Position numbers and translations under genes: made by a program
Notes under the pieces: model-generated
What the model was told of the DNA's origin: nothing
What the model saw: only the letters and a program-made list of their open reading frames with translations
Databases searched by the model: none
Source: Psammoneis japonica
Taxonomy: Eukaryota
Direction of reading: 5' to 3'
Assembly: GCA_008632985.1 (NCBI GenBank)
Contig: QPGO01000031.1
Span: 62,001 to 126,000 of the forward strand
Length of the DNA stretch: 64,000 bases
Shown: one piece after another, positions 3,570 through 52,080 of the stretch
How positions within the stretch are numbered: position 1 is the first letter of the stretch
Layout: the number at the start of each line of letters is the position of its first letter

Positions 3570-4478
3570 TTGTCATAATTTAATCCCCATGTTCAATGTT
3601 TGTGTCATCATCTGGAAGAACTTTCAACTGCAACTTCGCACTTCTGTCGCGCGGCAGATCGGCGCGCGGTGGCAAAAAACGAGGGGAGCACACTTCAGCA
3701 ATCAAAAATGTCAAGAGCACGACGGGCGACGACGGGCGACAGGGAACTTGTTAGAAAATCATCCGCATGACATTGAGGATGCGATTGATGTGCCAGAACT
3801 ACCAAGCCACATCGCAAGCATCTCGTGAGAGCTTGTCCAACATGGACCTTGCATCTCTCGCCCTCACCCCGAGCTGCCACATCACAGCAGGTTCACACAC
3901 TGGGTTCACACGCTGGGTTTCCACCTCCATGACGAAAGAAAGCAAACAAAAACTTCCACCCAAAACTTGTTGCAAAGCTGCAGACAAGCATGAATGGCAT
4001 GGTCTGTGTCAGCCATGACAAACACTGAGGTTTCCCTGTTTCATGGAGATGACAACGCCTTGTTTGAGCGACTTGTTTTTTGGAGATCAACCAGAGACTG
4101 GTTTGAGTTGGCAGACAATTTTGAAGAAGCAGGAATTGTTTTGCAAGGTGCACAATGGCTTTGACATGAGTCTCATTGCAGCCTGTGAGCAAGAAGACAT
4201 CAAGTGCCTCCATCAAGATCCTGGTGTCATCGTCAGGGACAAACTGAAGAAAGTCAGCAGCGCAGCAACCTTCTTCAATGCACAGCGAATCTTGGAACTC
4301 CAAAAGAGCCACGGATCTTAAGACACCCAAATTTTTGGGCATCAAAATCACAACAGAATTTTCAACGAGCCTGGAAAATTTGTCTGGAACTCATGCAAAG
4401 TCTTGTCCAGTTTCTGCAGAAATGTCAATGCCAAAACCAAAGTGGGCGTCAGCTCCAAAGAACTTTGATGGGGTCATG
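3570..4478. repeat. degenerate TpA-depleted repeat-like sequence flanking the copia element on the left (unidentified older element)
   Basis: TpA is rare and the ORFs are broken and Cys/His-rich. It lies outside the LTR. No recognisable domain. Confidence 0.45.
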
Positions 4479-4721
4479 TGACAGAAAATGAAGATGACTG
4501 GGTGGAAGAAAACAATGACTCCTTGCTGCTGTCTAAGCAGGATGAGTCTCCATGCAGAGACCATTGCAGGAGCCGAAAGACTGGTGTCATGATGTCGGCA
4601 CTGCTGCCATCATTCTTGTGAGCCGTGTGGCTCGAAAGCAAACTACTTCGCGCGTCGCGCGCAGAACTAAAAGCACACACAATTGTGTGTGACAAACTAA
4701 AATCTTGTTCAAATCCTGTCA
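4479..4721 (-). repeat. 3' LTR (243 bp)
   Basis: Direct repeat of 9791-10035. The PPT (ctcccc on the + strand) lies at 4722-4727. Confidence 0.93.
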
Positions 4722-4779
4722 CTCCCCAGTTTGCTTGAGGGACAACAGCAACAGATTCAAAGTCAGATTGGCAGGAAGC

Positions 4780-7300
4780 CTCTGGATCAAAGTTCCAAAA
4801 CATCAGGGGACGAAGGAGGGTCCACACCTGGGAGCAACCCCAGTGCTTGCTGAGAATGTCAGCTGGGTTGCGGGAGCCTTCGATGAAGTGAAACTTGAGG
4901 AAACCGGAAGCAATTGCCTCACGTACATGGTGGAACAAGAGGGCGGTGTGTCGCTTGTGTAACTTAGAGTGCGGGATGGTGGCACTATCCACAACCGACT
5001 TGTTGTCCCCGAACATGTAACAGGTTTCATGAATGTGGACGCCAAGGCAATGCAAAGTGATGCGCAGATCAATGATCTGCTCAACGCAGGTCCTTGCGGC
5101 AACAAACTCAGATCCACACATGGCAGTCTTGACTGTTGCTTGTTTCTTGGAGAACCAATCAACCGGAAACTTGTTGAGGAAATGCTGGTTGCCATTGCGT
5201 TCATCGAGAGCCAAGGCATGCTTGCAGTCCCAGGGCACTTCAAATCTGCACTTGCATCATGGTGTGGTGCAAAAGGAGCGCAGCTTGGCTTGGTTGGCCA
5301 TGCGGAATAGCTTCTTCTGGTGCTGAGCTATGGTCTGGAAACGTTTCCAGCCTTTGGTCTCAAGCAAGCCATGTTCACGTGCACAAATGGCACAGGTGAC
5401 GGCATCATCCTTGGCAATGATGGCAAGGGGTTCAGATGTGATCTCCCCATTCTCCCATTCAAGCATTGCATTGTGGCTTGAGCCTTTCCAAGATGGATCC
5501 TGAGGTCTCAATGGACCTTCATGAGAGACGATGCATTGGAACTTCCAGAGGGTAGAATCCTTGTCTTCTTGCTTGATGTGGTGCATGATGTCATTGCAGG
5601 CAAGAACTTCCTTGCATTCGTCATTGTTGACAGAGCAAATGAACTTGACCAGTTCAGGGTTGTCTCTGATTTCCCAATCATGGTCTTCAATGGCTTTGAC
5701 AATGCGGGCTCTGTGACGTTGTCCCCGTCCTCTTGCGGTTTCATGAGGAAGGTGCGTTCGATGACGTCCTCGGGCTTGAAGACTGGCATTTTGGGCATCC
5801 TGATTGCCTCCCCATCTGGTGAAGCCATTGAATCCAGAGGGTCATGTTGGGATTTGATGATGGTTTCAACAGATCCTTTGTCAGGAGGGTCAAGACGGAG
5901 GTTCAGAGCGGACGGGTCATGGGCGGAGCAGACGTTGGAATGGCAAAGAATCTTTTGAGTGTCATCAGAAAGAATCTTGAATGTCATTTCATGACCAACA
6001 TGTTTGGCAATGCCAGTGAAGCAACCACAAAGTTGTGGGATTTGGACGGCCAGTCAGAATCGTCCAAGTGGCAGCACACGGGCTCCCACCATTGGAAGCA
6101 AAGGAGCGGGCTGATGTGGGGGTAGAACCAGACAGTGCCTCAATGGGAGGAGGCCAATGTAGCTTGGTAGATGCAGTGTGGTTAAGCACAAAGCATGCGT
6201 GCACAAGGGCGAGGAGCCAGGTGCATGCGGGAGATCCAAAGCGATCCATGATTTTGTTGGCCATGGTTTTCACAGTCTGGCAGCGGCGCTCAGCAAAGTT
6301 CTGGTGCTGTTGGTGAGGCTTGCTTTGCCAACTAGAGATGAAGAGGGCACGAAGGATGCCAAGGACCTTGTTGCTCATGTCAACCTGGGCACGGTCGCTG
6401 ATGAGCTTGGAGGGAGCACCATGATTGCGGATGTTGTCCTCAAGTGTGTTGACGAATTCTTTGTCAGTCTTGGTGCCGCAGACGTTGGTGACAAGAGATT
6501 CCGCACCAACAAAGAGCTGTGCACTGACAGGCACACTGTGTCATGCAGTCAAAGGTGCAGCAAATAGTGTCCTTTGGGAGGAAGCCAAAACAGGGGCACA
6601 GAGACTCACAGTTGGGATCTTTGGCATTGATCTTGCGCTCATGGCATTCATGGAAGAAGTTGGACGTCGGAAGGAGGTGGTCATCCAGGACAGAGTCAGT
6701 GAGCATGGCATTGTTGACAATGTGGTGGTGACGACAGTTGCAAAACTCATCAAACAGGTTGGTGGTTGGGTCGTCTTGGAGGTCGGACACGGCGTCATGC
6801 CATGTTTCATTGTCAGTGAACTGATGGTCAAGGACAGACAGATCTCAGGTGTCATTGCCAGCGAGGACAACGTGAGGGAGTGTGTCCCATTCGGCGTTGG
6901 TGTGCAGTCGTGTGGCAATGTCAATGGGAACGACGCAGCCATCTATGGTGGCTGTGCGTTGTAGACCGTTGGGCACCTTGATGGACCTGTTGTTCACATC
7001 ATGTTTGCACCACTCAAGTTGGCCACAAGAACAGATGGTCTTGCCTTTGCCAGTGCAAGCGCACTGGTGAAGGATGGCAATGACGGGTTCACGCTGCGTG
7101 TGAATGACACCACCTGCAGTGACAATGGGAATGTCAACAAGCTGGTGGTTGTCAATGCCTTGTACGTCAACCTGACGACCAGTGCAATTGATGACACAAA
7201 CATCATCACCGGTGACACCGCTGTTTGCACCACGATCCACAAGAGCACCCTTGCAAGTTGAGGCATGAGTCAAGGCAGAGTAGATGACACTGTGATTGTC
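4780..7300 (-). pseudogene. pol: copia pol remnants (protease, integrase, RNase H) with stops and frameshifts
   Basis: ORF fragments 6845-7546, 5989-6534, 5257-5586 and 4474-5238 carry the copia motifs in PR-INT-RH order. Confidence 0.9.
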
Positions 7301-8931
7301 AGTGCAACAGCAAGTGTGGCCGTTGATCTCAATGTCAGTTTTGGTGTGGCGTGAGGATGAAGATCCGGGTGGCTTCTCGCCAGAGTGGGCGGAAGGGGGC
7401 CTTTTGGGCGTGAGAAGACATTGCAGATCACCGGGTGGCAAAGGCTTGCGCTTGGCAAGGTGAGCCAGGATGGGGCCAGCATCGGCTGGGTTGGCGGCAA
7501 CGTCAGGTGGTTCAGGGTTCAGGGGCAGACGCGAGGTCGTGAGCATTGGCTGACAAGTTCACGTCACCATCGCTGCCAAGACGGAGGTCGTGGAGGTTGA
7601 CTGCTGTTGAGTCATGATAATTGCCAGCATGAGCAGTGCGTGAACCAAGGATGATGGCCTTGGTGGACTGAGGCAAGGTGTCCCAGATGCGCTGGTGGTC
7701 CGGCGGGATGCGACGCCATTGTTCCTTGGTGAGGGAGTTGCCACAAGTCTGAGCAGCACAAGCCTGAAGGACGTCAACATCACTGTTGATGTCATGGGAT
7801 ACGTCATCATCAGGGTCGTCAGGAGCCAGGTCATGTTCACAGATGGCGCGGCGGGGGGCGTGTGAGGCTGTCTTGGGGTTGAACGTGCTGTCGCACTGTG
7901 CCGCTGCCAAAAGCAGGAGCCCACAGTGCTGCTCACAAGAAAGACCCGTGCCATTTTGCATGCAAAACTGATCAGCTTGATTCTTTACCAAACAAAGTTC
8001 TTTGACAGGGTGAACAGCATTCTTGAGCATGACGCATTTCTGGCCATCCGAAAAATGGTCCGTGTCGGGGATGAGAGCTTCGCACTTGCAAGCTGGTCCT
8101 GCCAGTGGAGTGTGAAGGCATGGGTGGAGCCTTTCCAAGTGCCATCACCAAGGCGAGTAGAGGTGAGGCATGTGAGAAGGCTCAAGGACTCCAGGGATGC
8201 ACAAGTGGACACAAGGGCGTACTTGGAAAGTTCAAGATGCACCGCTTGGGCATCAGAGGAGCCGACATGTTCATGAACAAGTGCCTTGCCCTTGTCATTT
8301 TGCAAGATGCATTCAAATGCGGCAAACATGCATTTTTGTTGTTCGGCAAACAAGGCCTTGTCCTCAGCTGTGTTGGGCTTGTACGTTGAGTCGAGGATGC
8401 GATCGACATCCTGAGAGCAGGCCTGTGCAATGATGGAGGTGTGCCACGTGTGCCACTGCTTGTCTGACTTGAGAGTCACAAAAGTGAGTGGGTCACGTTT
8501 GATGCCTCGCTTGAAGTCACGCACGGGGTCACATGGTTTTGGGGGCAACAAACCAGGAGCAGGAGCAGAAGGTGCCGTGCCCATGGAGAGGGACGCTGCG
8601 CACTTGGGGCTGAGATGACAGTTGGCAAACTCTTCATGTGTGAACAACGTGGGGTTGTTGCTGACATCAGCGCCGCTGCGTGCTTTAACCGTGTGCAAAC
8701 TAATCAAAGCAGCAATTTGTGCTTTGCAGCCATGGGGCAAAGGCGTTTGATTGGTGCCGTTGTTGTAAACTGGAGCATCGAGTTGCAACAGGGTAAACAT
8801 GAAGAGACCTGGTGCAAATCAGTGCCATCAATGCTGAGGGCGGAGCGCAACGGACTGTCTGCGGCTTGATTCAGAACAGTGCCTAAGATGCACTCAAAGC
8901 AATCAGTTTGTTGCTGTCTGGTGAGAACCAT
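7300..8931 (-). pseudogene. gag: copia gag remnants
   Basis: Fragments MVLTRQQQTDCFECILGTVLNQAADSPLRSAL, DFKRGIKRDP, DKGKALVHEH and LHWQDQL resemble diatom CoDi gag. Confidence 0.8.
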
Positions 8932-8989
8932 GGTGCAACTGATTGGGTGCCAGGACCAGAGTTGGAGAGTGGACTGGAGTTGGAGAGCA

Positions 8990-9052
8990 GACTTGAAATA
9001 ACTTGAGACTTGACTTGAAACTTGACTTGAAAAATTGACTTGAAAACTTGAA
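8990..9052. repeat. ACTTGA (TCAAGT) short tandem repeats in the copia 5' UTR
   Basis: acttgaaataacttgagacttgacttgaaacttgacttgaaaaattgacttgaaaacttga, just upstream of the gag ATG. Confidence 0.8.
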
Positions 9053-9790
9053 CTGTCTTGCAAGTCAGAAGCCGCCAGGTTGTGCCATCCCATTCACAGT
9101 CAATTGCCAAGCTTCCTGTCCGGTCTGTAGAGTTGTGCCGGCATGTCCAAACCCACAGCTGGTGACGCTTTGGGTTGCCTGAGAGCGGAGTGACAGGTTA
9201 AAAAAACCCTGCTGACAAGCCAACCAGAGGTGGACAAGACCTCCGAACCTTTCTCATTTTACATCGGTTGGACAACCCAATCAGGCCGGCCAGAATTGGC
9301 ACTGTGGAGGGACAAACAAACATGGGAAAAGCACCCTCACCCCAATGTGGACTAGAGTCATGAACCACTTCCTCTCACAGTTGTCCTTGTGGACCTTGTG
9401 GGACTGTAGAAGACCAGCAATCCGGTGCAGACAGGCAGCAGCAGACTTGGCGTGCTTGGAGCAGGACCAGAGTCAAGTGACAGTGTCATGTGCATGTGAA
9501 CACATGCAAATGTGTTGGTCTGTCTGTCAATGGGAGTAGAATCCGCTGTGAGGAATCCGGAATCTCAGAAGCCTGAGAATGCGGACATTCCTGACCAAAC
9601 AAATGTCCGTTGAACAAACACACGCAGCGATTGGACGCATTGGATGAATCCAAACACATGTGTCCAATCCAATGTTCAGCAGTGAAGAAGGTGGGTGTGT
9701 GCTTCCACTGCCAACGGTTCACGTCGTCGATTTTCTCGGTGACGATGATGAAGGCTCAATGGGTGAATGTGTTGGCCGAGACTGTCAAGC

Positions 9791-10035
9791 TGACAGAAAA
9801 TGAAGATGACTGGGTGGAAGAAAACAATGACTCCTTGCTGCTGTCTAAATGGCAGATGAGTCTCTGTGCAGAGACCGTTGCAGGAGTCGAAAGACGGGTG
9901 TTGTGACATCAGCACTGCTGTCATTGTTCTTGTGAGCCGTGTGGCTCAAAAGCAAACTACATCGCGCGTCGCGCGCGGAACTAAAAGCACACATAATTGT
10001 GTGTGATAAACTAAAATGATGTTCAAATCCTGTCA
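9791..10035 (-). repeat. 5' LTR (245 bp)
   Basis: Direct repeat of 4479-4721 with TGACAG/CTGTCA termini. Confidence 0.93.
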
Positions 10036-10860
10036 TGCAAAAACAAAGCAAAAAAGAAAGCCATGTGACTCTTGAAGACACAGCCATGCATTGCAATGAC
10101 TCAGACACACTGTGCCAACAAATGCAATGACAACCTCTTGCACGGTCTCTGAGGGTTTTAACTGTCGGCAGTCTCACAATCATTTGAGTGGCAGTGCTGA
10201 GCAAAAAAAAAGTGTGCAGAATGAAGTTGGAGTGCAGCTGACGAAAAAAGCAGTCAAAGGAGGTTGACAAATTTGCTCCAATGATGCTCTCATTCTGCAG
10301 AGTGATGAATGGAGCTCCTCCCTGGCTTGTGTCTGCCCTAGATTGATGGCAAAGGTGCAAGTGTGTTGCACTCAAATGTGAAATCAGAACAGTGTGTGAT
10401 GTTGCTTGTGATGAGTTTTTGTGGATTGCTTGGCCTGTTTGTTGCATCAAAAAGGCAAAACACAGTTGTCACAAGGTCAAAAATGAACTGCAAAATGGGG
10501 CAGTGCCACAAAATGCATTTTGTGTTGATGTCATTGCACGTCTTGGTGTTGAGAAAGGGCCACCAGCTCCCCACTCATTCGCTCGTCGCACCCAGAGTGA
10601 GCAGTCACGAGTCATCAACCCCACATGACCCACTCAACTCAAACGTTTTTGAAGCACCAGCTGGACTTTGACCCCCGCCAGATCCACAAAACATGAAAGA
10701 CATGAGCATTGTTGGTTTCCAACTCTTCAAAACAATGTTTTGCAAGAACACGCAACAAGCATGCACAGGACATGGCTGGCATCAGACATTTGGGGGTGAA
10801 TGTGACTTTTTGCAGAGCACCTTTGTTGCACGGGAAAGTGTGAAGGATGATTTTTAGTGA
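10036..10860. repeat. degenerate TpA-depleted repeat-like sequence flanking the copia element on the right
   Basis: Same dinucleotide signature as 3570-4478. It is probably the other half of the sequence into which the copia inserted. Confidence 0.45.
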
Positions 10861-11266
10861 TGGCTCCACAACTGACGCAACTCTCTACTTGTGACCCAAA
10901 AAGTTATCGGGAACTTCGTATGAGTGTGACATTGGTTGGTTCGAAATGCATTTTGGGGTGGTTTTGTGATTGCACGTGGAAGCATGGCGTTGGGCCCCAT
11001 TGCTGTTGGGAGTGGGGCAGGCAACACAAGCACGAGCAGTAGCATACTCTCTAAGTATGGACCATCTTGCCTGACTGTGACTCTCGACAGTGGTGCAGAT
11101 AGAGTTAGCGACTGACGCGTAAAAGGACCTCGAGACCTCTCGGCTAAAGAGATTATCGACAGAGAGTTTACCCAAAGTACCCAAAGTAGTACCAATTTGA
11201 AAGACCAAAAACGACAATCAAAGCAAAAGCTCATGCATTCCAAATTCCAAAAGACAATCTTATTAT

Positions 11267-16944: not shown

Positions 16945-19182
16945 ATGCCAACATGGTTGTGAAATCCGAATTCTGTTTCGGTGAGTGTGACACCAATTTA
17001 AATTGCGGAAAGTTCACACTATGTGCTGAATTTCGACGGTTAGTAGGAATCATATGTAGAGTCCACGGGTCTTTGTCTCAAAGTTGCGGTAAAACGAGCA
17101 AAAGAACGTTCCAAAGCCGGTTTGGTGTGGTTCAAACACGTCATTGCATTCAATCAAGGTAGATCTGTACTAATACCGACGTAGCAATGAGAAAGCTCAA
17201 TTTCCATTTGAATTTGACCATTGATGAAGATGCAGTTTGGTTCTTCGTGTCAGAAACGCCATCACATGCCATCACTATGCTATCTACATCTGTTAGAGCA
17301 ATAATACCATGGGAGGGTCTTTTTGGGTGATACCATTGATGCGTTGAAAAGTACAGAACATCGATAGTAAGAATTGCAGATTCCAGATTCCAAAAAATCA
17401 TCCAACACATCCAGTTTTCATTCATTTCTCGCTCTCAGTTCATTCCCGCCTGATCATCATCTGTTATCTGTTGATTGTCACCATCACAAGAGAATTGAGT
17501 GCGCCAAGCACCTTGCCATGATTCGACGTACTGTACCATACATTTTACAAAAATCAAAGAGAAGCACCATGAAACTGTTCTCGACACTTTGCCAGTGAGA
17601 AAGGCCACAACTCGGCCTTGCGACTTGCGGCCTCGGGCGTTGTTCCAAACAACGGCGACCGGACAGGTAAATCAGCGCCTTTTCGGTGTAACCAAGAGTT
17701 ACGCCAGAAGATGTACCATTGCATCTATACTCTGTACTGGTACCATTGTTTGGCGTTTCATTGTCTACCGGCTGGCTTTGACTTTGAAGTGCGCAGCATC
17801 GATGCCACGAATTCGGCACTGTGGCGGAAGCAAGGCTTTCAACGGAGAAACTTCCCCCGTCGTTTGCCGTGGTCATCATTTGTGGAATTGAAGACCTCCG
17901 TCACACTGTTCCCATATACTGATGTAATCAACGAGTTTGATCGGGCCTACAGACATCTTCCGAGATGAGACAATCCACATACCCAAGCAAATCCTTACGA
18001 TCAGGCGTTGGACAATGGGTGTGCCGGTATACTAACTTATTGCTCCATTTAAACTTGGACTGCCCGGGGCGTTTCTTCAAGAACAACGAGACATGTGCAT
18101 GCATACCTGTATAGAAGCCGTATCGCCCGAGTCATACTGACCTCGCAAGTCGAGGCGACCCCCTCCGTTCCCTCGTCATGCTCTCGGTTGGCTTACTAGT
18201 CCTCGAGAACCTACCATGTGTATCAGGGTCTTGATAATGGGATGTTGTTGACGTTTTCTTTCATATTTACAAGTTTGAATTAAAACGCTCCCTGTCGTCT
18301 GAAAAGGTAGTGGGGTGAGCGTGTCGAGTCTGCACGCGTGTCGACTGCTGCTTACTACGTACGACAAGTGAAGCAGTCTCAAACTCCTTTGGACAGCAGT
18401 TGTGTCCTTGTCAGGCTGGAGCAGGAGTCGAATGTTTTGATTTTGGAGCGACAAAGGAAGGAGTCACCCTGTTCTTGTGCAGATCGGTTCCGGCTAGAGC
18501 CAACTTCAGGGTTTCTTACGATGTTGTTTCAGGTGCAGAATCAAGCAGCGAGATTAGTCACAAACGCGGAAAGTGAGAGTATCTCCGCGTAATAGCGTTG
18601 GCGTCTTGGGCCCTACGTTCAACGTGGCGTCTATCCATTTTTTGCACGTCGCGAGCGTGACGATCAGGAAGGGACACGATTGATTATATTTGTTATAATG
18701 CCACCAACAAATGTGCTGGCATTATCGTGCGGCTGGGAATTTCGCCCGAGCGATTGCGACCACTGCACTGCACCTGATGCAGGCACTGCAGCAGAAGGCG
18801 ATATTGTGGAAGCGTTCCGAACGAAATGCTCTAGAGACAAAATTGACTGCTGTCGTCAGCACCAATAACTGAAGTCAGCATCATGGGGTGGCATTTATTC
18901 CCGTTTCCTAACTTCTCACGCCACCTCCCCGGGACTAAAAACAATCTTGGCAAATTTGGCAGTCAAATCCCTAACCTTAAAAAGTTTCTGTCGACATTCC
19001 CACACTGGCCCGACAAAACTCTGGTTTTCTCTTGATGCTGCTTCAAAGCTCACTTATTTATGCCGTACAAAACACTCAAGATTCTTTCAAAGAGAGAGAG
19101 ACGCAAGGCGCAACTGCGTGCTCACCATACTATACTGGCAGCAATACAGAAACGGAAATGTTGGTTGTACATACTCCTCTAT

Positions 19183-19325
19183 CTACTAGCTAGAGTAGCT
19201 AGGTCTAGAGAGAGCTAGCTACTACTACTACCTCTAGAGAGCTACCGGTAGTAGTAGATAGAGTAGCTAGAGTATTAGTAGAGTATTAGTAGTAGATAGA
19301 GTAGAGAGAGCTACTCTAGCTAGGT
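19183..19325. repeat. TAG/CTAG/AGCT-rich low-complexity island
   Basis: ctactagctagagtagctaggtctagagagagctagctactactactacc... Related islands lie at about 14497-14560, 47170-47354, 51665-51722 and 63155-63190. Confidence 0.85.
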
Positions 19326-30067: not shown

Positions 30068-32794
30068 GCTGCTTGCGATTATTCGTGTTCATCGCCATTT
30101 TGCATTTTGCTGCAATACGGGACATTGGCACAGGTGACATTGGCAGAGGTGACATTTTGTAGTGAGGCACGATCGATGCTGTAGGCACGATCCGCACTGT
30201 CCTTGCGCGGTCCCCGCCACAGTGCGGCCTCTTGACTTCTGCAATCCTCCGATGGGACAGTTGAACACTGTCAGTTCAGTGAAGGACACAGTCCGCCCTT
30301 GCACATCTTGCATTTCGCAGGAAGAAAAGATGACATTGTGTTGTCATCTCAACAACACAGAACAGTGGAGACCAAGAACCAGGCTGCTGGCAGAATGGCC
30401 CAGCAGCCCAAGTCCAAAGCCCACCACCCTCAGTCACTGCCAGCAGTGGTGCTGCACCCTGCTCCACCTCACGGCAATGCTCAGGTTGTTCCCAGGAGCT
30501 GGTGCAGGCTGGCAGAGTGAAGGATGGCAGCTGGGGCAGGAGGAGGAGAGGGGGGAGCACCACTGTCACCTCCACAGCCACCAGCCATTGCACAGCAGGC
30601 GCTCCAAAGGTGCGGCAGTGCTGCGACATTCAACCAACACAATGTGCACTGTCCCTGTCACCACCCTCAAGATTTGTCATCTTTTTGCTCAACATCTGGG
30701 GAACATTTGAGAGGGTTTTTGGACCTGTGTGCCAAGGACTTGATTCACAAATGTCCAAGCCACCCAGCACTTCTCACCAGGCTGCTGCAGCGACACCTGC
30801 AAGCAGAGATCCTGTGTTGGATTTGTCAGCAGAACACTTTGCTCAGCCCATCAAGTTGTGCCCAGTGTGTGCCTCATGGCAACTGTGCATGTGCCTGGTG
30901 TGTGCATTTCCCAAGTCATCCCTTGTGCCCTTGAGATGTTGCCAAAGCCATTTGAGCACCTGTTTGCCCATCGCATGCTCCTTCTTGGGATCTGCTGTGA
31001 AGCATGAGTGCTGCTGAGTGGTGCATGCAATGTCGACACTCCCTGCAGGCAGAGATGCACCTTGCAAAACCAACAGCTGTGGCCACCTTTGCCAATTGAA
31101 GATGTGGCTTGATGGATGAGGAGCTGAGCAAGCAAAATGTCTGGAGAGACACACAATTGTTCTTGCAGGTTTTTGTGAGCATTGCTGTGTTTGTGCAGCA
31201 GCCACAGTGGCAACTGCCCTCTCTCACCTCCACAAGGAAGGCAAAGCATTGTCCAGGGGAGCAAAAATCCCATCTGGCACCCTCCACATCTTCTGCCAGT
31301 GCAGGCACACTGCCAGCACACCTGTTGCTGTCTCACACCCTTTGTGCACAGCAGAGGTGCTCTCAAGAGCAGCGCCAGCCACAGCCCCCACAAGCCTGCT
31401 GAGGAACACGCTCACTTGGGCAGCAGAGCAAAACAGCTGGTTTTGCTTGAGTCGACAGACAAGGGAGCTCTGGGTTGTTTTTTCATGTGCTCTGTGTCTG
31501 ATCCTGGCTGAAACTGCCAGTGCCCCTCAACAGCCATTGTTGGTGCCCCTGTGCTGCTGTTGCCAACCACACCTCTGTTGTGGGTTTGACAGCACCACAC
31601 ACCAGCCCAATGCACCCTGTCAAGTCTGTGCATTTTGGGTGAACCTTGAACTGCAACCTCCACCAGACACTCATGGCCAGTGCACCTCAATGCCAGGTCT
31701 GTCCAGCAAAAGCGGGCTTCTTGTTGGTTGTTGGTCAACGGTTTTTGTTGCAGAGTTGTTGTGTGGCCCCATCATGTTCACACCTTCTTTCCACCCCAAC
31801 ATGCCTTCCCATGGGGGCTGGGCAAACCCACCCCAAATCTTTGCACTGCTGCTGAAACCTTTGAAGCCTTGGCCAGCACCACCACTGTCCATGGCAGCAT
31901 GCCCCTGGGACACCCTCTGGAGTGACTGTGAGTCAACCATCCAAACACCAGACGACACCACCACATCATTGCCTGTCACTGCACAATGCTTTTCATGTGC
32001 CAGCAAAGATGCCTGACCCTCATTTGTGATGGCAATGCCCCCTGCCTCAGCTGTTGATGTCCAGGCACACTGGGCTGGCAGTGCAAGGGTTCTCTGCAAC
32101 CTCCATCAAAAACAACTCTGAGTTGCTCAAACATCCTCATGCCTGCCAAAACAACAACACCATTTCATGACACTGGCTCATGTGGCTGCATTCTGCCCCC
32201 CCCCCCCTCAACAGAGCAGATGATGTCTCTTGTTTCAAGCAAGGGCCTTTCAAACACTGGCTTCCTCAAACATTTCTTGAGCACCACTTGCCCAGCAAGC
32301 AAATGTCCTGGCACATTGTGACCCTTCTCCACCCAAACTTTGTTCTGCTCTCTGTGCTGCACAATGTGCTGCTCAACAACATGGCATCACTGCCTCTTGA
32401 GCTGCCACCAAAACTCCCTCCATTTTGGACCTGGTGGCAATGTTCTGCTCTGAGTTGGTCATGTCAGTCCACTTCTCTCAAAGACAATGAAGAGCCTGCT
32501 GTGCTCATTCAAGTCTTTCTTCAATGACACAGAAATGGAGAGCAGCTTCCCTGATTTGTCATCCATGGATGCACCGCCAAGGATGCTCTGCAGCCAGTTG
32601 GCCAAATTTTTGCTGCAACAGAGTTCCCAGACCCACGTCTCACACCCCAGATGATGAAATGGATTTCCACCTCACTCGCCAACTTCTCAATTTTTCAACA
32701 AGAAAAAAAAGAGCCAACTTGCTGACCACATCAAAGTGCCCCCTGTGTGACATGTGATCATCCATTGGACAATGCATGCAGCTGCAGCCAGTTG

Positions 32795-32799
32795 CCCCC

Positions 32800-32830
<31 letters not shown>

Positions 32831-32840
32831 ACACACACAC
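32795..32840. repeat. poly-C run followed by a (CA)n microsatellite
   Basis: About 22 C followed by about 12 CA/AC units. Confidence 0.9.
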
Positions 32841-33599
32841 CCAGCACCAAAGGCACCACTGACATGACTGCCACTGTGTCTTCTTTGTGACATGGCCTGC
32901 CTTTGGACACCACTCCATTCTGCTGCCTTGCCACAATGCATTTGTTGTTTGTGGGCTGTCCTCCAGCAGCAACATCTTCTGTTTGGATGTTTGAGAGGGG
33001 CTGCCAATGCTCAAGAAACTTGACAACCCCACTTTTCTATCTGCTGCTTTGTTGACCATGCAAAAGAACAGCATTTGTGGCAAAGGCACTGGCCTTGGCT
33101 GCTTGCACCACCCTCTGTCTTGTGCTCTGTCATTTGAGTCTGCCAAGGACTGCAGGCACCTCATCACCCAACACCTGTTGGAGTGTCAAGCCACGGCTCG
33201 CCAACTGGCACATGCTTGTCTGACTGACCCCAAACTCACCACACAGCTTGCAAGCATGTTCCCAACAGCTGCCATTGACTGCCACTGCTGTCATGTTGAC
33301 TGGGCGCAGAAGCCAAAAAGTGAGCACAAGACCTCACCAACAACTCAACAAGAGCCACAAACACAAATTCATCATGTCGTCAACAATTGTCAGTGTGTCC
33401 TGTGTCCTGTGTGAAAAATTGTCTGTCTGTCATGCAAAAACTGCCTCACACCTTGATGTTCCAACACACTCCTTCACACAAGCCATCAATTGATTGGCCT
33501 CATGTGCCACTGACTGCAGGAGGTGGAAACCATGCCAGCCAACCAATCATGCCACTTTGACTGCTTCACCAATCAATGTGGACAACATCATCTGACTCC

Positions 33600-34140
33600 A
33601 CTGATGAATGATCATTGTCATCATTGAGCAAAGGACAATCCTTTCTTGCATGCCCAACCTTGTTGCATTTCCAGAATTTGATCTGCTCTTCTTCTTGTTT
33701 TGCACAAGACTCCTCACACCCTCAGGTTCTTGTTGGCTCCATGCATGTCCAACACCTGCAGTGCCTCCTTGGCTGAGTTGGGGCAATTGTCAACCACCCC
33801 CAGTGCAAACTGCCAATGTTGGTCTTTCAAGACATGCCGGTGTTCCTTGGTGCCCTCCATTGGCATTGCTGCTGACAATTTGTTTCTTTCTTTGTTCTGG
33901 GTGTCCTCAGCATCTGAGCTGAACACACCTTCTTCTTTCTTGGCAATTTGTTCTGGGGCAATCTGCCACGGGACATTTCCGCCATCTCAACAATGCTTGT
34001 GAGCCATTTGCAGCAAACTTGAACAAGCTTTTCTCTCCCTTGTTTTTGACAAATGAGTGCCAACTGCTTCCAAGCCTTGACTGGCTGAGCATGCAAGCAC
34101 ATCTTCCCATTTGCATTGAGGAACAAGATCAACTTGAAGC
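33600..34140 (-). pseudogene. possible LTR-retrotransposon gag fragment
   Basis: LKDQHWQFALGVVDNCPNSAKEALQVL resembles the G.D.YP.T...A..LL gag motif after Cys->Tyr reversion. Confidence 0.3.
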
Positions 34141-34149
34141 TGCAGTGTG

Positions 34150-36800
34150 TTGATGTCATGTCACAATCATCTGATCCAAGCTCAGTTGCAGTCAACAACC
34201 AATGCCAATGTGGCGACAAACCAGCACCATGTTCCCACTGAGGATGCCTGGAGCTGATCTGTGACAAAGAGATGTGCAAGCCTCTGAGGCACACCAGTGG
34301 GTGGCTCTCATGACTGCAATGTGCATCCTCACATTCACAAATCTGCAGACTTCCAAACAAGGCTTCTGCCATTCATCCAAGAGCTCAGCCACAATCAAAT
34401 GAAGCATTGCTTTGGCCTCTTTGCCTGGCAATCCATTGCATGACACTGCAAATGGAGCAGAGTGGTGTCTTTGCTCAAGGCATCGCTTGAGGTTGTTTGT
34501 GATTCACCAAAACCAGTTCCAGCAATTTGGACAGGCAAGACCTTGCACATCCGTGTCTGGTGCTCAACATCAATGGCTGTGTCTTTTGTTCTGTTCTGGC
34601 ATTTGCAAGCTGGCACATCTCCACTGTCACCATTTCTCAACTTGTTGAGATTTGCAGCGACACTCTGGGTTGGCCAGCCAACTGGTTTCCTGCTGTTGAA
34701 CTTCCTGGGGAGTGACCAGCATTGATGAGAGGTTGGTCATGTGCACAGGAAAGCTTGGCAACCTTGTGGCCAGTTGGCAGCTCAGCTCATCATGGATCTT
34801 GTCATGTTGCGAGATGACCAATCTGCCCTTCTTGCACTGAGTGGCATGTTGAATGGAGAGTTTGTGACCACATCCATCACAATGCTCAGGTGGGTGTCTT
34901 GTGAAGCAATGCCATGCCACAGGCAAAGTGCATCATCTCATGGAACTCCTCCTGACTCAAAAGGTCAGTGCCATTCAACAGCAGTGGGCACATGGACAGC
35001 CAGGCTCCAGTCTTGGCACTGTGTCCAACAGAAGGGGCTTTCATGTCTGAGAAAAGAGTTGTGAGAACAGTTTTTGAGGCTGTCTTCATGCATTTTTGCC
35101 TTTTGTTGTGCCACCTCCTGCTTTGCTTTGTACATTGTGTCCTTGTGGACCACTGAAGAGAAGCACAAATGTCCACAAAGTGAGTCAATCACAAAGCATG
35201 TGAGAGTGCTTGCTTTGCAGTTTTGCACCACAGACTTGGGGTTGGGTGAGGCACAGAGGTTCCTGAAAATTTGAATGGAAGAGAAGACAAGGCAATTGTT
35301 GGGTCATTGCCATCCACTGTCTCACCCATTGATGCAGGCAGAAATTGATGCTTGACCACAGCATCCTCAATCTCTGCAAAAAATTCACCACAGTCTTCAA
35401 CTGCACATTGGACATGCTGCCATTGGTGTCAGAGAGACTTCTGAAGGCCCACATGGGCTGTCCAAAAGTGATGAGAATCACAATTTTGGCAAGACCGCCG
35501 ACTGCCAAGGTCCACTTCTTGGACTTTCTTTAAGCCATTTGTTGTGCGCTTCTGTCTTCCACTTTGCCAATGAAGCTGCTGAGGCATCTGCTGTCGGACT
35601 CTGCTGAGAATCCCACCAGATCTCCAAAATGCTCCAAGTTGTTCTCCAGATTGCACTCTGGAATCTGGAATCAGTGCAAGAATGTTCTTGGAGGCATCTG
35701 TGGGGTGACACTCAAATCTGGGTCCAACCTTGTCTCACGGAGTCAAGAAAAGCTTTTGCACAATGTCAAATTTTCCTGCTGCAGCCAAGTCATTGGTGTG
35801 CCAAGGGGTGGGCACTTTGGAAGGCCTGGTTGATGAGCCACCGTGCAAAGTGGATTGCCTTGAGCAATGTCTTCCTTGCTGAGAAAATGTGCTGCCACGC
35901 CAAAGTGACATCAGGCAAGAAGAGTCAACTGGTGTTTGCAGGATGCCCAAGTGTGTCTTGCATTGTGCAACATCAGAGCCCTGCTGGCAGCTCCCAAAAG
36001 TCTGCCTGCTCCAGAAGTCTGCCCAAGTGCTTGGAATTGCATGCAAGTTCTCACAGTGTGTGCTTGTCTTGTCTGCAGCACCTTTTGTCTGCATGCAAGA
36101 ATCTGGTGCATTTTGTGCACAACAAATCCCAAAAAAGCAAAGAAATTTGTTGCAATTCCACCGCATGAATTCTGCTCATGAAATCATGTAGAAAAGCTGA
36201 TGGTTCATGAGATGCACTCAGCACAAGAATTGTGTGGAAGCTGTGTCCCAAAAGGGCAGACTTTTGGGGTGGGAATCAGTGCAAGTCCACAGGGCATCTA
36301 CATGATTTTGGAGTGAGCAGACTTTTGGGTGCTGCCAGCCTGCTCAGTTTGTTGAAGCTGTTGGGGGCATCAACAAAAAGAAAGCCACAGTCATCTTTGA
36401 ATTGCGCTGCTCCCAGAGCATGTTTGTTGCATGAGTTCCACATTTGATGCCCACTTTCAGAAAAAGCACATGACTGATCTGCACTCACGCTTCTCCAGCT
36501 GTGGCTCCAGCAACTGGGAGAATCACTTTGGCCGCTGCATGCTGCCAGACTTCTCCAATGTTGACCGGATGAATGCCCAGAGTTTTGTCCAGTGCTGGAA
36601 GTCTCTTTGCCATCAGTGCCTGGCAAGCAGACCATTGGGAGAGTTGTTTGCAAACCAATTTGTGAACTTGCACATCACTTTCCCAAGCAATCCGCTGGCT
36701 GATCTGAAAGTCCTCGATTTTCCAAGAGTCCTGCTTGAGGCAGGATCGTTGTTTGGCACCACATTTTTAAATGGCTCACAATTTTCCTGTTTTCCCGTGC
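34150..36800 (-). mobile_element. CRE-clade (restriction-like endonuclease) non-LTR retrotransposon, 5'-truncated and degenerate
   Basis: RT motifs RLPALDKTLGIHPVNIGEVW, FLFVDAPNSFNKLSR and PWHTNDLAAAGKFD (from WYADD). Zinc knuckle CDGCGHKLSIQHATQCKKG...QHDKIHDEL. RLE tail GKEAKAML...WQKPCLEVCRFVNVRMHIAVMRATHWC. Confidence 0.88.
35984..36338. mobile_element. 355-bp MITE with 22-bp TIRs and a 4-bp CCTG target-site duplication, inserted in the CRE RT
   Basis: cctg|ctggcagctcccaaaagtctgc ... gcagacttttgggtgctgccag|cctg (one mismatch). Removing it restores the frame NKLSR-ALMLHNARHTW. Confidence 0.88.
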
Positions 36801-37386
36801 TTCACCCGTGTCATTTTGCAATGCCTCTGAGCATCCCAAAACACTTGTGAGTGTGTTGAGCCCCCATCAGGGCTGGCAGACCCTTGTGTGAAGTGCGCTT
36901 GTTGACCTTCAAATGCCAATTGTTGGTTTTGGTGTGGTTGTTGTGTTCAACAAACCGCCATTTTTCACCAAAATCGGGCTGTGGCAGACAAGCCATGACT
37001 TTCCAGGAAACAAATGCCGACAATTGGCGTTTGACCGGCTGTGGACACATCTACAGACAAAGTTCGACCCATCGCTGAAAGCTTGTGTTTGGTGAACGCG
37101 TGTGATTTAGTGCGAGGAATCCGGGTTTTTAAATTGGCTGTGCCGCTCACGGTGGAGAATGTCTCGCTTGCTCTGTACCGAAAGAGCAGCACTGATCTAT
37201 TTTTCTGTCTGAAGTTGAAAACTGGGTAACACAATGATGTAGGTTCTCTTGCCTCTACATGCTGGTGCTTCACTCGTGGCTGTTCTAGTTAGGCATTATA
37301 TCACCCTCTCTATAGCCGTTGCAGAACCGGCCCCAATCTTTTCATAGTATGCAATTGAGTTTTCTCTACATCTGCTTGCCACGGTA

Positions 37387-47237: not shown

Positions 47238-47335
47238 TCTAGCTAGAAGTAGCTACTCTAGCTCCTAGAGAGGGCCTCTCTACCGGTCTAGCTAGAAGTA
47301 GCTACTCTAGCTCCTAGAGAGGGCCTCTCTACCGG
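47238..47335. repeat. 2 x 49-bp perfect tandem repeat within a TAG/CTAG island
   Basis: tctagctagaagtagctactctagctcctagagagggcctctctaccgg occurs twice. Confidence 0.9.
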
Positions 47336-48368
47336 TAGAGCTAGTAGTAGATTAGAGCATCTTCGCCAGTGAGTCGTAAACATAAACCTATGTCCGTACG
47401 TCTTCCGATACGAATGAGATTCACAAAAAATCATCATTTTCGGTGGATCGTAAACATATTTTTTGCGCTAATAACCCTTTTGAATTTACGATTCATGAAA
47501 GTGAATCGCAAATCAGGCCTTGGATACGATCCACCTCCAAAATCGTAAACGAAAATCGTAAATTTCTGGTACAAAAAGGGTGTAGAAATCCTGTAGAAAG
47601 TGCGTGTCACCATGACGAAACGACAATCGACGCTTTCTTGATGAGAGGACCTTACAGAGGCCCAACAATTAAGACTTTGTCGTATCTTATGAACTTACAT
47701 ACGGCCGCATCGAGATATGGGAGGAGAACCGACATATGGGGGGTTTATGGGGTCAGAAGAGAATAAGGCATAAATCGTGTGATAACATTTCGCTTGTTTT
47801 CGCGATGTAGAATGACTTTCACAACATAGTAACACATAGATTATTCTCTATTGATAGACGTCGACATATCTTTGAATAGACGGTGATTTGTGTCGTATAT
47901 TGCGTTCAAAGCCGCCACGGCGTCATGTAAAATTCAACAAGTCCGTCCTACCATCAGTTAGTTATTGATATACGTGTATGGAGTTGGTTGTTACCTCAAC
48001 GTCTGCCCAACCATCGGCCGAATGTGAATACGATCGTGATCGACTGAAAATTTTTTTTGGAGGGACGCGGAGCGTCCCTGGAGGGACATTTGTCCCGCGG
48101 AGCGGGAGGGACGCGCGAAGCGCGCCCCCGAGGGACAGGGTGTCCCTCGGGTCCCTCGCAAATCGGCCGGAAATCGACGGGTGGAGCCGCCGACCAGACC
48201 GGTCACCCTACGACGGACGACAGACGGTCCGACCACCGCACTACCGCCGCTCGCTCGTTGCTGCTGTTGCACCAGCAGCAGGGCCTAGTCTACCGTTTTC
48301 ATTGCCATTGTTGCGATTCGTTGCGATTGGACTTGTATGGCATACGCTGTCGGCATCATTTGTCCATA

Positions 48369-50827: not shown

Positions 50828-50845
50828 AAACTCCAGTCACATTGA

Positions 50846-51080
50846 CAGCAGATTAGCATGCTATTTGTATCTCTAGTGTTTATTGTAAGAGTCTTAATTT
50901 TAACAACCTAATGTGCTCTATCATGCGACACCACTGGCAGTTTCGGATCGACGGCAGATTAGCTTGCTGTTTGCACTGGCATTCCTTGTAGGAGTCTTAA
51001 TTTTAAATACTACATCATATGCTCTATCACATGTCACATGACATACGTTGGTGTGACACTGTCAATAGTTTCGGATCGAC
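50846..51080. repeat. imperfect 2-copy repeat (about 105-125 bp) downstream of the recombinase stop
   Basis: The blocks gcagattagc...gagtcttaattttaa...tgctctatca...gtttcggatcgac occur twice. Confidence 0.8.
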
Positions 51081-52080
51081 AATTGGGAATCGAAATACTG
51101 CACAACCTGGATCCTTCGTACACGCTTTCCTTAGTGCGCGCTTCTCCAAATTTGAAATTGCTGCATGGTTTCAAACAAAACAGAAATCCATAATTCACAA
51201 TGACACACAATGGAATCAAGCTCATTGGATGAATTATACAATTTATGTTAAGAATGAAACAAGCAACGGGAAAATCGGTGAAAGTATCATTGAGATATCA
51301 CGCCGTAAAGTGGGACACCGGCGGCTCGCATCATCGTGCTGCTGCAGTTTGCTGCGTGCAAATTGACTTGGTGAAATTTTGTGAGGGTTTCGTGTCCCTT
51401 GGAAATTGTGCGTGTTGTGTGCGATTGATTATGTGTCTGTGTATGGCACTTGTATGCGTGTCGTGTCCCTCAGGAATTGGGTGTACTGTCCCTCTGAGTC
51501 GGTCTAACACAGAAAATGATGGTCGCGTGCAGAATCGTAAACTTATACGGGGCAGTCTGTTCGCTTGTCCTTTTAGGTTATGTTCCTATGTTTATGTTTA
51601 TGTTTACGACTCACTGGCGAAGATGCTCTTAGACAGGGCCTACAAACGGTGCGGTGGGACAATAGGTACTGTAGGGCTAGTAGTCTCTCTCTCTAGAGTA
51701 GCTACTCTCTACCGGCAGTAGAGGCATTCCGAATCTTCCGGCATTTCTTCGATTTCTTCATGAAACTCTTATGAAAATATTCAGACATGAGCATAATCGG
51801 TACAATGAGTTGACGTGGCGCGACTGGAAGATTCGAGTGGTCGCACCTCACAAATTGAACGCGAAAATGCACTTCCGTCTCGTCATTGGATTCTGATGTC
51901 TGATGTGTCGTCTGGCGTGGTACTGTAATAGACGACTCCAGCTTGACTACCGGTACGACTAGGGCTAGAAGTATTAGTGAGTACTAAGACACCGCCACAA
52001 ACCGAACATAAACACCACATCAGGACTCACTTTCAATCGGTTCTAGCTACGTCTTCGGAAAGAACAGCATCACTTCAAGC

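Follow-up and report, generated by a model that had tools for sequence, protein, structure and literature searches.

Differences between the two long terminal repeats of a Copia-type element in Psammoneis japonica point to TpA conversion on chromosomal DNA after insertion

The two long terminal repeats (LTRs) of a retrotransposon are identical at insertion. The question raised by a 64,000-nt stretch of Psammoneis japonica DNA (hereafter the window; contig QPGO01000031.1, positions 62,001 to 126,000) is what process, acting when and on which molecule, made the LTRs of one of its elements differ. The original prediction assigned most of the differences to three classes (TA against CA, CG against CA, and reciprocal CA against TG) and attributed them to a mutator that acted on chromosomal DNA after insertion.

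The element is a deleted Ty1/Copia LTR retrotransposon, as identified from its LTR pair, a Copia-type reverse transcriptase in its family, a tRNA primer-binding site, and a purine tract (table 1), whose function beside the 3′ LTR follows from established LTR-element anatomy. The LTRs, 243 and 245 nt long, have the ends TG...CA. A full-length family member carries an RVT_2 domain (E = 3.7e-26) downstream of a frame that we take to be integrase-like from its motifs, without a Pfam match; the reverse-transcriptase core is absent from the window copy, which has a second deletion of about 135 nt near 6528. The C-terminal pol region is presumably RNase H-like, judging by its position and a motif. 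Pfam gave no match for the frames of the window element or for three frames of the 30.3–37 kb block. A search with a first-guess tRNA anticodon stem gave no match either, and 12 motif loci in which ARAGORN found no tRNA are primer-binding sites. In the element interior (4722–9790), the observed/expected ratio (o/e) was 0.12 for TA and 0.51 for CG, and 79% of 163 TA-class sites were converted (64 to TG and 64 to CA). The TA-erased domain extends past the element on both sides, and the second repeat (10190..11010) is a possible earlier source of silencing at the locus.

Table 1. Features of the element, its two LTRs, and the flanking DNA (positions in the window)
Feature	Position	Strand	Remark
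Whole TA-erased domain	3790..10850	.	TA o/e 0.03-0.27 per 500 nt; edges approximate
Broken paralogue of host DNA-3-methyladenine glycosylase I (tag)	3917..4478	+	Split by the element close to the 3′ end of the gene
3′ LTR of Copia-type LTR retrotransposon	4479..4721	-	Adjoins purine tract; 4/18 TA-class sites kept
Reciprocal CA/TG sites	4538, 4551, 4588, 4593, 4611		
CG/CA sites	4562, 4596, 4633, 4662		
TA/CA sites	4680, 4693		
Polypurine-tract-like motif	4722..4733	-	Next to 3′ LTR; common to family
C-terminal pol region	4722..5190	-	Three Tyr conserved in outgroup are Cys here
Deletion breakpoint	5188..5193	.	~1.2-kb deletion taking out reverse-transcriptase core
Broken gag/protease/integrase-region frames	5257..8818	-	
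Primer-binding site	9779..9790	-	Matches anticodon arm of host tRNA-Asn(GTT); TA of site is CA here
5′ LTR	9791..10035	-	6/18 TA-class sites kept, including equivalents of 4680 and 4693 (lost in 3′ LTR)
Last codons and downstream DNA of tag paralogue	10036..10183	+	Continues empty-site sequence
Second repeat	10190..11010	.	Also TA-poor; other copies elsewhere ~65-70% identical

Target-site duplications of 5 bp were exact in 35 of 42 pairs (19 of 26 in one family, 16 of 16 in the other). The flanks of the window copy share only TG at a recognisable empty site, and we infer a small deletion at its junction. The flanking 4-mers CATG and TGCA are both present, but the suggestion that they were one TATA or CGCG duplication mutated two ways fails against the 5-bp duplications of the family and the TATGCG of the uninterrupted paralogue, from which CATG derives as TATG and TGCA as TGCG. 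A recombinant of two insertions, considered for the unlike flanks, was dropped because both flanks are contiguous in that paralogue on contig C75.

Aligned over 243 columns, the two window LTRs show 23 differing columns and a 2-nt gap, and 16 of the differing columns lie in 11 pyrimidine-purine sites derived from TA or CG. All eight difference pairs quoted in the original prediction were present and its three classes stood, with 4596 and 4538 as additional sites; the alignment at 4538 is uncertain because the gap adjoins it. Of the 32 mutable sites 11 differ, whereas of the 177 other columns 7 do (Fisher p=3e-6). When polarised with 58 other LTRs, five of the 11 sites came from TA and six from CG, and the two classes were disjoint across these LTRs; the classes rest on this wider set, an earlier classification with 21 pairs only having left nine sites ambiguous. 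The TA/CA sites run from TA to CA and not the reverse. Among the reciprocal sites, three (4538, 4593, and 4611) are TA-derived, with TA in 3–4 and CG in 0–1 of the 58 other LTRs, and two (4551 and 4588) are CG-derived, so that they are ancestral TA or CG sites hit oppositely in the two LTRs, as predicted, rather than CG sites throughout. The six CG-derived sites can be explained by ordinary 5mC deamination, and only five sites record the TA process. Short-read contigs of run X1, which may be the window's own sample, span both junctions (4285–4506 and 10008–10438) with no differing letter; the LTR differences are therefore not an assembly artefact. Eight of 10 read-versus-assembly differences fall at TA or CG sites.

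TA is the ancestral state at the TA-class sites and was converted to TG or CA. The host tRNA-Asn keeps TTAA, while the primer-binding sites show TTAA, TCAA, or TTGA; 12 of 15 outgroup-conserved tyrosines are now Cys or His; and young 5′ LTRs agree with TA as the starting state. Change from CA or TG to TA was at background level (at most 11 of 12,563 cells, and 37 of 22,964 in a second tally). Tallies of "0 TA at fixed CA/TG sites" were circular, since any TA reclassifies the site as TA, and were not used.

There is little doubt that TpA was converted after insertion, on chromosomal DNA. Sister LTRs mutate independently, site by site: in 26 pairs, 110 of 348 doubly converted sites were reciprocal, where 109.0 were expected under independence and 0 under inheritance. 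In a younger sister family (family 2), 16 pairs differed at 147 of 287 TA sites, 37 of 345 CG sites, and 10 of 3,133 other columns. This family had 25 reciprocal sites against 33.1 predicted by independence, a deficit indicating that part of the conversions came from donors that had mutated earlier. Moreover, the target-site duplications of two copies (L046 and L051) show TA to TG in one duplicate only. Neither strand is favoured, sites are converted singly, and the rate is several hundred times that of change at other bases. The hazard ratio of sense to antisense was 1.02 (0.94–1.14), and no same-direction runs of conversions were detected at any distance (z -2.1 to 1.7). The hazard per A was 0.58 at TA and 0.006 at AA, about 95 times less; the background comprised A>G outside TA (0.004–0.006), C>T outside CG (0.002–0.003), and almost no transversions. 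In young 3′ LTRs, TA change was about 380-fold over background, and in young copies CG loss was about 25 times slower per base than TA loss. Converted TA showed a 2.2–2.4-fold preference for a 3′ pyrimidine (+1), and primer-binding sites, pooled over both families, carried CA 47 times and TG 6 times. The process makes A:T>G:C transitions only at TpA, on both strands, and keeps to bounded stretches of foreign or repeated DNA; by sequence, A>G on one strand is indistinguishable from T>C on the other.

The host gene copy split by the element was changed in the same way. Its intact twin on contig C75 has normal TA and CG, and 22 of 23 scorable TA sites of that copy are CA or TG in the window, where CG has likewise been erased. 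Considering that this paralogue does not retrotranspose, its change at TA identifies chromosomal DNA as the target. Together with the independence of sister LTRs, it bears out the prediction that mutation happened there and not on RNA or during reverse transcription. The paralogue is older than the insertion, because 88 of 687 other columns differ from the C75 copy as against the 7 of 177 between the window LTRs, and its mutation may predate the arrival of the element.

The 5′ LTR and leader of young elements escape TA loss and CG loss alike, with a step rather than a gradient. TA was kept only in the 5′ LTR 108 times and only in the 3′ LTR 14 times among young family-2 copies, which were selected for a primer-binding site with its TA intact and are thus enriched for spared 5′ ends; for CG, the counts were 30 and 6. 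Older family-1 pairs showed no such difference (82 vs 77). This sparing is a new observation and suggests that silenced chromatin sets the territory. Among 40 copies, TA loss and CG loss were imperfectly coupled (Spearman 0.41). Most flanks reaching host-like DNA (11 of 13) had at most two TA in their first 200 nt. A general halo spreading from every insertion was not established: many flanks of young copies have even less TA than the copies do, so part of the pattern is due to insertion into DNA that had already lost its TA. None of 80 metagenome Copia relatives had a TA o/e under 0.3 (minimum 0.31, median 0.81), in a search that favours intact frames and therefore says little about the range of the process.

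Two readings would remove the TA process from the chromosome or reverse its direction. Editing before integration, ADAR-like on element RNA or APOBEC-like on cDNA, is reportedly known for vertebrate LTR elements, and it would account for the conversions that pass through transposition (the family-2 deficit of reciprocal sites and the excess of CA in primer-binding sites); APOBEC editing gives gradients along an element, which the spared 5′ end superficially resembles. However, that zone is a step, RNA edits would reach both LTRs whereas sister LTRs are independent, and edits to cDNA would leave each copy changed in a single direction whereas here the directions interleave without strand bias. 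The host gene and the target-site duplications, which were never RNA, were also hit. Such editing is refuted as the main route, for which we consider it highly improbable, and a minor inherited share remains. CpG decay combined with fungal-type repeat-induced point mutation (RIP; CA to TA), under which the reciprocal sites would all be CG and TA the derived state, has in its favour the six CG-derived sites, two of them reciprocal. It has practically no probability given the three TA-derived reciprocal sites, the background level of change to TA, and the agreement of tRNA, protein outgroup, and host paralogue on TA as ancestral; moreover, the repeats are TA-poor, not TA-rich.

The best overall explanation, conversion of TpA after insertion by adenine deamination in silenced-chromatin territory, is probably correct as a whole. 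Judged from sequence patterns, a targeting defined by chromatin appears likely, while for adenine deamination as the chemistry the case is evenly balanced. Silenced chromatin would mark the territory, and the same zones lose CpG, as would be expected under DNMT5-type methylation, for which CpG loss serves as a proxy. A TadA/ADAT-fold or ADAR-fold enzyme would deaminate adenine to hypoxanthine, needing a 5′ T and preferring a 3′ pyrimidine, and would work at a low rate on briefly unpaired DNA through many cell divisions, each lesion becoming fixed as G at the next replication. Elements would be crippled through Tyr to Cys/His and other missense changes, not through new stop codons. In the accessible text of the respective reports, DNMT5 is responsible for CG methylation of Copia elements in diatoms (PMC9998398), TadA reads U-A-C-G (PMC10586758), and engineered TadA8e causes genome-wide A>G changes at TA (PMC13225742). 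The enzyme search in this genome returned only an ordinary-looking TadA, ADAT2, a dCMP deaminase, and two stand-alone editase domains; the TadA-like gene lies on contig C38 and the editase-domain genes on C40 and C79. There were 29 DNA-methylase matches among the matches listed.

Other chemistries and another targeting were also weighed. A change of T in silenced DNA, whether the thymine of TpA is modified and mispairs with G or a T-to-C activity is at work, seems unlikely: the sequence is blind to the attacked base and the preference is equally R-T-A on the other strand, but the TA(Y) preference, if A is the target, fits an enzyme fold that is already known, and we know of no mutagenic T modification of this kind. 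Error-prone patch repair (polymerase-eta-like, A>G at WA), set off by T:G mismatches from deaminated 5mC, would account for TA and CG loss in shared territory and for a background of A>G outside TA above that of C>T outside CG. With polymerase eta, the rate at AA is a sizeable fraction of that at TA, whereas here AA is far less affected and transversions are nearly lacking; the same-strand runs expected of it are absent, and TA changes about 25-fold over its supposed CG triggers per base. We regard this repair as quite improbable. Only slightly less likely than a change of T is the same chemistry guided, in the manner of RIP, by homology pairing of repeats during the sexual stage. The affected DNA is almost entirely repeated, the tag gene itself is duplicated, and RIP too leaks into flanking DNA. 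Yet the 5′ and 3′ LTRs of a single element, although identical, fare very differently, the tag twin on C75 is normal in TA and CG, strand-coordinated bursts are absent, and the Bigelowiella process, in the accessible text of its preprint, runs in clonal lines on a single-copy region (bioRxiv 10.64898/2026.01.13.699255).

As far as the accessible text goes, one other alga has been reported to carry a TA-erasing signature, with neither an enzyme nor a targeting rule named. Pairs of LTRs serve as an internal clock and control that fix its timing (after insertion) and its substrate (the chromosome, both strands, distributively), and the spared 5′ LTR gives a testable rule for the target mark. In a group for which genetic tools exist, the question of enzyme and guidance can then be approached through knockouts and chromatin mapping. 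TA loss also breaks LTR-based dating: raw divergence of the window pair is 9.5% vs 4.0% at non-mutable columns, and that of the young family 5.3% vs 0.32%. We tentatively suggest, as a possibility rather than an expectation, that a natural chromatin-guided DNA adenine editor is a genome defence common to distant algae (Rhizaria and stramenopiles). Such an editor would be recruited to CG-methylated, silenced domains, would slowly rewrite every TA on both strands, and would be kept off still-active LTR promoters until silencing covered them. If this is true, it would mirror RIP and, for the first time, show adenine bases of chromosomal DNA being edited naturally for defence. A strictly TA-specific natural DNA adenine deaminase would also be of interest to base editing.

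Like the process described here, RIP of ascomycetes places repeat-targeted, dinucleotide-specific transitions on the chromosome after insertion, LTR pairs diverge, and flanking genes are reached. Unlike in RIP, TA is lost and not made, stop codons are removed and not created, members of a duplication are hit unequally (5′ and 3′ LTR, intact tag twin), and there are no same-strand runs. APOBEC/ADAR editing of retroelements differs in its one-direction clusters per copy, which are absent here, and the host flank was changed as well. From the accessible text, CG methylation of diatom Copia elements (CoDi) by DNMT5 with 5mC deamination covers the six CG sites and the CpG decay of older copies (PMC9998398), but it cannot yield TA to TG or CA. 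No diatom report of a TA-erasing signature was found in the largely open-access literature searched. Off-targets of TadA8e and adenine base editors are, in the accessible text, alike in A>G and T>C at TA via single-stranded DNA (PMC13225742, PMC10586758); TadA8e is laboratory-evolved, untargeted, and of modest TA preference, whereas the process here occurs naturally, keeps to domains, and has an almost absolute specificity for TA. For Bigelowiella natans, TpA hypermutation of DNA integrated from NCLDVs and virophages has been described (Mettrop et al., bioRxiv 10.64898/2026.01.13.699255), in a preprint whose accessible text lacks the words "diatom", "LTR", and "CpG". According to that text, both processes change A:T to G:C at no dinucleotide but TpA, with TpG or CpA as the product depending on the strand, in bounded regions of foreign DNA and at hundreds to a thousand times background, and an adenine deaminase is likewise a proposal. 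The Bigelowiella process is live in mutation-accumulation lines, acts on viral inserts, and leaves much TA, with transposons only suggested from Pfam enrichment. The present process, in contrast, affects LTR retrotransposons as well as the copy of a host gene, in a different lineage, and is near saturation; the same zones show CpG decay, the promoter end is spared, a 3′ pyrimidine is preferred, and strand coordination is absent.

The alignment of the two LTRs of the element in the window contained 23 differing columns among 243, together with a 2-nt gap. All of the LTR differences quoted in the original prediction were present in the sequence, and its sorting of them into TA/CA, CG/CA and reciprocal CA/TG classes held for 16 of the 23 columns, which make up 11 TA/CA/TG/CG sites; the remaining differing columns lay outside such sites. 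Mutable sites differed in 11 of 32 cases, compared with 7 of 177 other columns (p=3e-6). Both element junctions were crossed unchanged by short-read contigs from a run that may be the window's source sample. RVT_2 was present in a full-length relative, so the element is of Copia type, and this region is missing from the window copy owing to a deletion of about 1.2 kb. Eight of 10 differences between short-read run X1 and the assembly fell at TA- or CG-type sites (3710 and 7936, where the reads keep TA, and six CG-type sites); alleles, strains or repeat copies could account for these. The LTR TA sites 4534, 4644, 4668 and 4698 resisted conversion in 18-29 of 31 copies; all are preceded by C, and three are then followed by AA.

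Features of the window element and ancestry of the differing LTR sites, with counts in 58 other family-1 LTRs
Feature	Position	Strand	TA/CA/TG/CG	Remark
LTR element	4479-10035	-		5,557 nt
5' LTR	9791-10035	-		element orientation
3' LTR	4479-4721	-		element orientation
TA-derived site	4538		4/20/33/0	adjoins 2-nt gap
TA-derived site	4593		3/19/34/1	
TA-derived site	4611		4/29/24/0	
TA-derived site	4680		12/35/10/0	
TA-derived site	4693		5/44/7/0	
CG-derived sites	4551, 4562, 4588, 4596, 4633, 4662		TA 0, CG 25-37	

Site ancestry was read from 58 other LTRs of family 1, the window element's own family, and the 11 differing sites split cleanly into five TA-derived and six CG-derived. The TA/CA differences (4680 and 4693) polarized as TA-derived. 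Reciprocal sites had been attributed to ancestral TA or CG changed oppositely in each LTR, and they were found to be three of the five TA-derived sites (4538 beside the gap) and two CG-derived ones, hence not all CG. That TA is ancestral also follows from the priming tRNA, the outgroup tyrosines, the intact tag gene and the rarity of the reverse change. TTAA stands in the host tRNA-Asn, whose anticodon arm is matched by the primer-binding site; the corresponding step was TA in 47, CA in 47 and TG in 6 of the first 100 of 296 matches, with the families pooled. Relatives from 80 metagenome loci were aligned, and at 15 positions at least 60% of those aligned had Tyr; there the window element encodes Cys at 9, His at 3 and Tyr, Phe and Trp at 1 each. 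Where the intact tag gene (DNA-3-methyladenine glycosylase I) has TA, its broken paralogue in the window has CA or TG at 22 of 23 scorable sites, with one reverse case; 36 TA sites were aligned, and 13 with gaps or other letters were left out. The change of CA/TG to TA reached at most 11 of 12,563 cells, and 37 of 22,964 in a second count. The window's primer-binding site (9779-9790) is of the half-tRNA type, for tRNA-Asn(GTT). Among the matches listed, CA exceeded TG about 8:1 at its TA, above the context prediction; the CA form would make a G:U pair with the tRNA, might still prime and could be inherited.

The timing was examined in 26 of 27 family-1 pairs (L057 was left out for a tandem third LTR). 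Of the 348 TA sites converted in both LTRs, 110 were reciprocal, while 109.0 were expected if the LTRs were independent and 0 if the changes were inherited. In family 2, a younger sister family, 16 of 20 stretches were used; of the others, two were without a partner LTR and two were rearranged. These pairs differed at 147/287 TA sites, 37/345 CG sites and 10/3,133 other columns, and the TA hazard in their 3' LTRs was about 380 times background. Their reciprocal sites numbered 25 against 33.1 expected, and therefore some conversions were already present in the donor. Among five target-site duplications with a single mismatch, two had TA>TG in one copy only. TA and CG loss were both greater in older copies. 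Six copies of family 1 (L127, L060, L136, L069, L126 and L057), each on a small contig (<180 kb), had 25-48% of TA converted, versus about 85%, and their CG loss was moderate (19-36%); the extent of TA loss thus varies with locus or age.

On the question of whether the two window LTRs are sisters, both carry the marks 4655 T and 4671 A, which the two LTRs share in just 3 of 21 pairs. The lack of a 5-bp repeat at the flanks at first made a recombinant element more likely. A recombinant of two insertions was ruled out, because the two flanks align without interruption to a single locus on contig C75, the intact tag gene (Pfam E=3e-38); thus a single insertion broke a second copy of tag within its last codons. 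The uninterrupted sequence at this empty site is TATGCG, from which the left CATG (TATG) and right TGCA (TGCG) derive, sharing TG only. Target-site duplications are 5 bp long, exact in 19/26 (family 1) and 16/16 (family 2), with 4 bp exact in 1/42. The idea that the flanks were one TATA or CGCG duplication mutated two ways was accordingly discarded, and a few bases were probably lost at one junction. The tag gene is of bacterial type, and its intact copy persists on C75; the named close matches of the duplicated gene (window 3917-4478; L172:1043-1651) were bacterial or unlabelled.

We found that the two ends of young elements were unequally converted. In 9 of 16 family-2 pairs the 5' LTR keeps 14-17 of 17-18 TA sites and the 3' LTR 2-8; over all 16, TA was retained in the 5' LTR alone 108 times and in the 3' LTR alone 14 times (CG, 30 vs 6). 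The spared zone of about 650 nt, comprising the 5' LTR and leader, was less converted than any equally long stretch elsewhere in the same copy in 12 of 13 young copies (exception, L148). Its CG loss was 12/545 versus 274/5,857 elsewhere (p=0.006). The young copies behind these comparisons had been selected by an intact TA adjoining the 5' LTR. One family-1 copy found via its 3' end had the same spared 5' zone (4/38 vs 49/177, p=0.04). Old family-1 pairs had no 5'/3' difference (82 vs 77), and the window pair was only slightly 5'-biased (6 vs 4 TA-class sites kept).

In the left flank, CG was kept at 12/13 sites in 3648-3782 and 5/24 in 3800-4409, and the recovery of TA density, between 3800 and 3580, roughly coincides with the CG edge. 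DNMT5 is described as methylating CG of diatom Copia elements (PMC9998398). Based on this methylation and the coincident edges, silenced chromatin may define the target. The coupling of TA and CG loss across copies was loose (Spearman 0.78 in 16 copies, 0.41 in 40). A 6.7-kb block with sharp edges (30300-37000; TA o/e 0.00-0.06, CG o/e 0.0-0.3) is the end state of both processes; Pfam gave no match in three frames of it. A perfect 49-nt tandem pair (47238-47335), TA-rich and rich in CTAG/TAG, is apparently untouched, and a related inverted copy lies 28 kb off (19179-19214). At 47354-51629, 37-nt inverted repeats flank frames, with partial TA loss and little CG loss in 48500-49500. The C5 DNA methylase family has 29 matches in the genome, several full-length and several broken, presumably more than one DNMT5 and DNMT2 would give.

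At the 163 TA-class sites of the window element, 64 are now TG and 64 CA. A competing-risk fit of 327 sites gave a sense/antisense ratio of 1.02 (bootstrap 0.94-1.14), and C or T 3' of A was favoured 2.2-2.4-fold, with weaker effects at -2, -1 and +2. The hazard per A was 0.58 at TA, and that per C at CG was 0.024. A shared direction of neighbouring conversions, sought at all distances, was found neither in 13 young copies (z -2.1 to 1.6) nor in 40 family-1 copies (z -0.9 to 1.7). RNA editing would give equal LTRs, unlike the observed pairs, and single-burst cDNA editing would give one-direction runs, which are absent here. Polymerase-eta-type repair would be expected to strike AA, yet the AA hazard was 0.006. 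Regardless of which event came first, the mutated tag copy shows that the process acts on the chromosome. The claim that mutation happened on chromosomal DNA rather than on RNA or during reverse transcription is thus borne out, since the tag paralogue changed in the same way and the LTRs changed independently. Because this paralogue predates the insertion (88/687 other columns differ from the intact copy) and adjoins a second repeat, spreading from the window element is not proven.

The most probable agent would be a DNA adenine deaminase that needs a 5' T and acts at a low rate on transiently unpaired DNA in silenced domains. Hypoxanthine would be copied as G, and each strand would be struck at separate divisions, so that an ancestral TA would become TG in one of the LTRs but CA in its sister; a converted TA would no longer be a target. 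Chemistry acting on T instead of A is less probable, as is RIP-like targeting by homology. TadA8e is reported to leave A>G at TA genome-wide (PMC13225742), and natural TadA to recognise U-A-C-G (PMC10586758). The deaminases of the genome, 10 PF00383 matches and 4 PF02137 matches at two loci, were ordinary-looking and none was implicated. In L166:1387-2859 (-) a deaminase domain shares one frame with what we take, from its motif, to be a 2-oxoglutarate oxygenase, and L171 resembles a TA-eroded deaminase relic. In two genes (L173:935-2472 and L174:772-2485) the adenosine-deaminase (editase, PF02137) domain stands alone. ADAT1 would account for one of them, leaving over a second editase, which falls outside the candidates weighed in the main text of Mettrop et al. 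2026 (10.64898/2026.01.13.699255).

The process in the window is not RIP, for TA is lost and the reverse change is rare (at most 11/12,563). In two metagenome Copia relatives (L241, L215) TA o/e is low (0.31, 0.35) and CG is near 0.75; this process may also occur in other organisms. The literature search for such mutation in diatoms found no report. The signature matches the TpA hypermutation of viral inserts in clonal Bigelowiella lines, which is described as A:T>G:C at TpA only, at about 6e-7 per site per generation, with ADAT2 proposed (Mettrop et al. 2026; bioRxiv 10.64898/2026.01.13.699255), and the process here appears to work like that one. The available text of that preprint concerns neither diatoms, LTRs nor CpG, whereas LTR elements with CpG loss are involved here. 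The observation is real, the main inference of the original prediction is supported and the signature has been reported once before; new here are the empty-site control, the finding that hits are not coordinated by strand, and the sparing of the promoter end.
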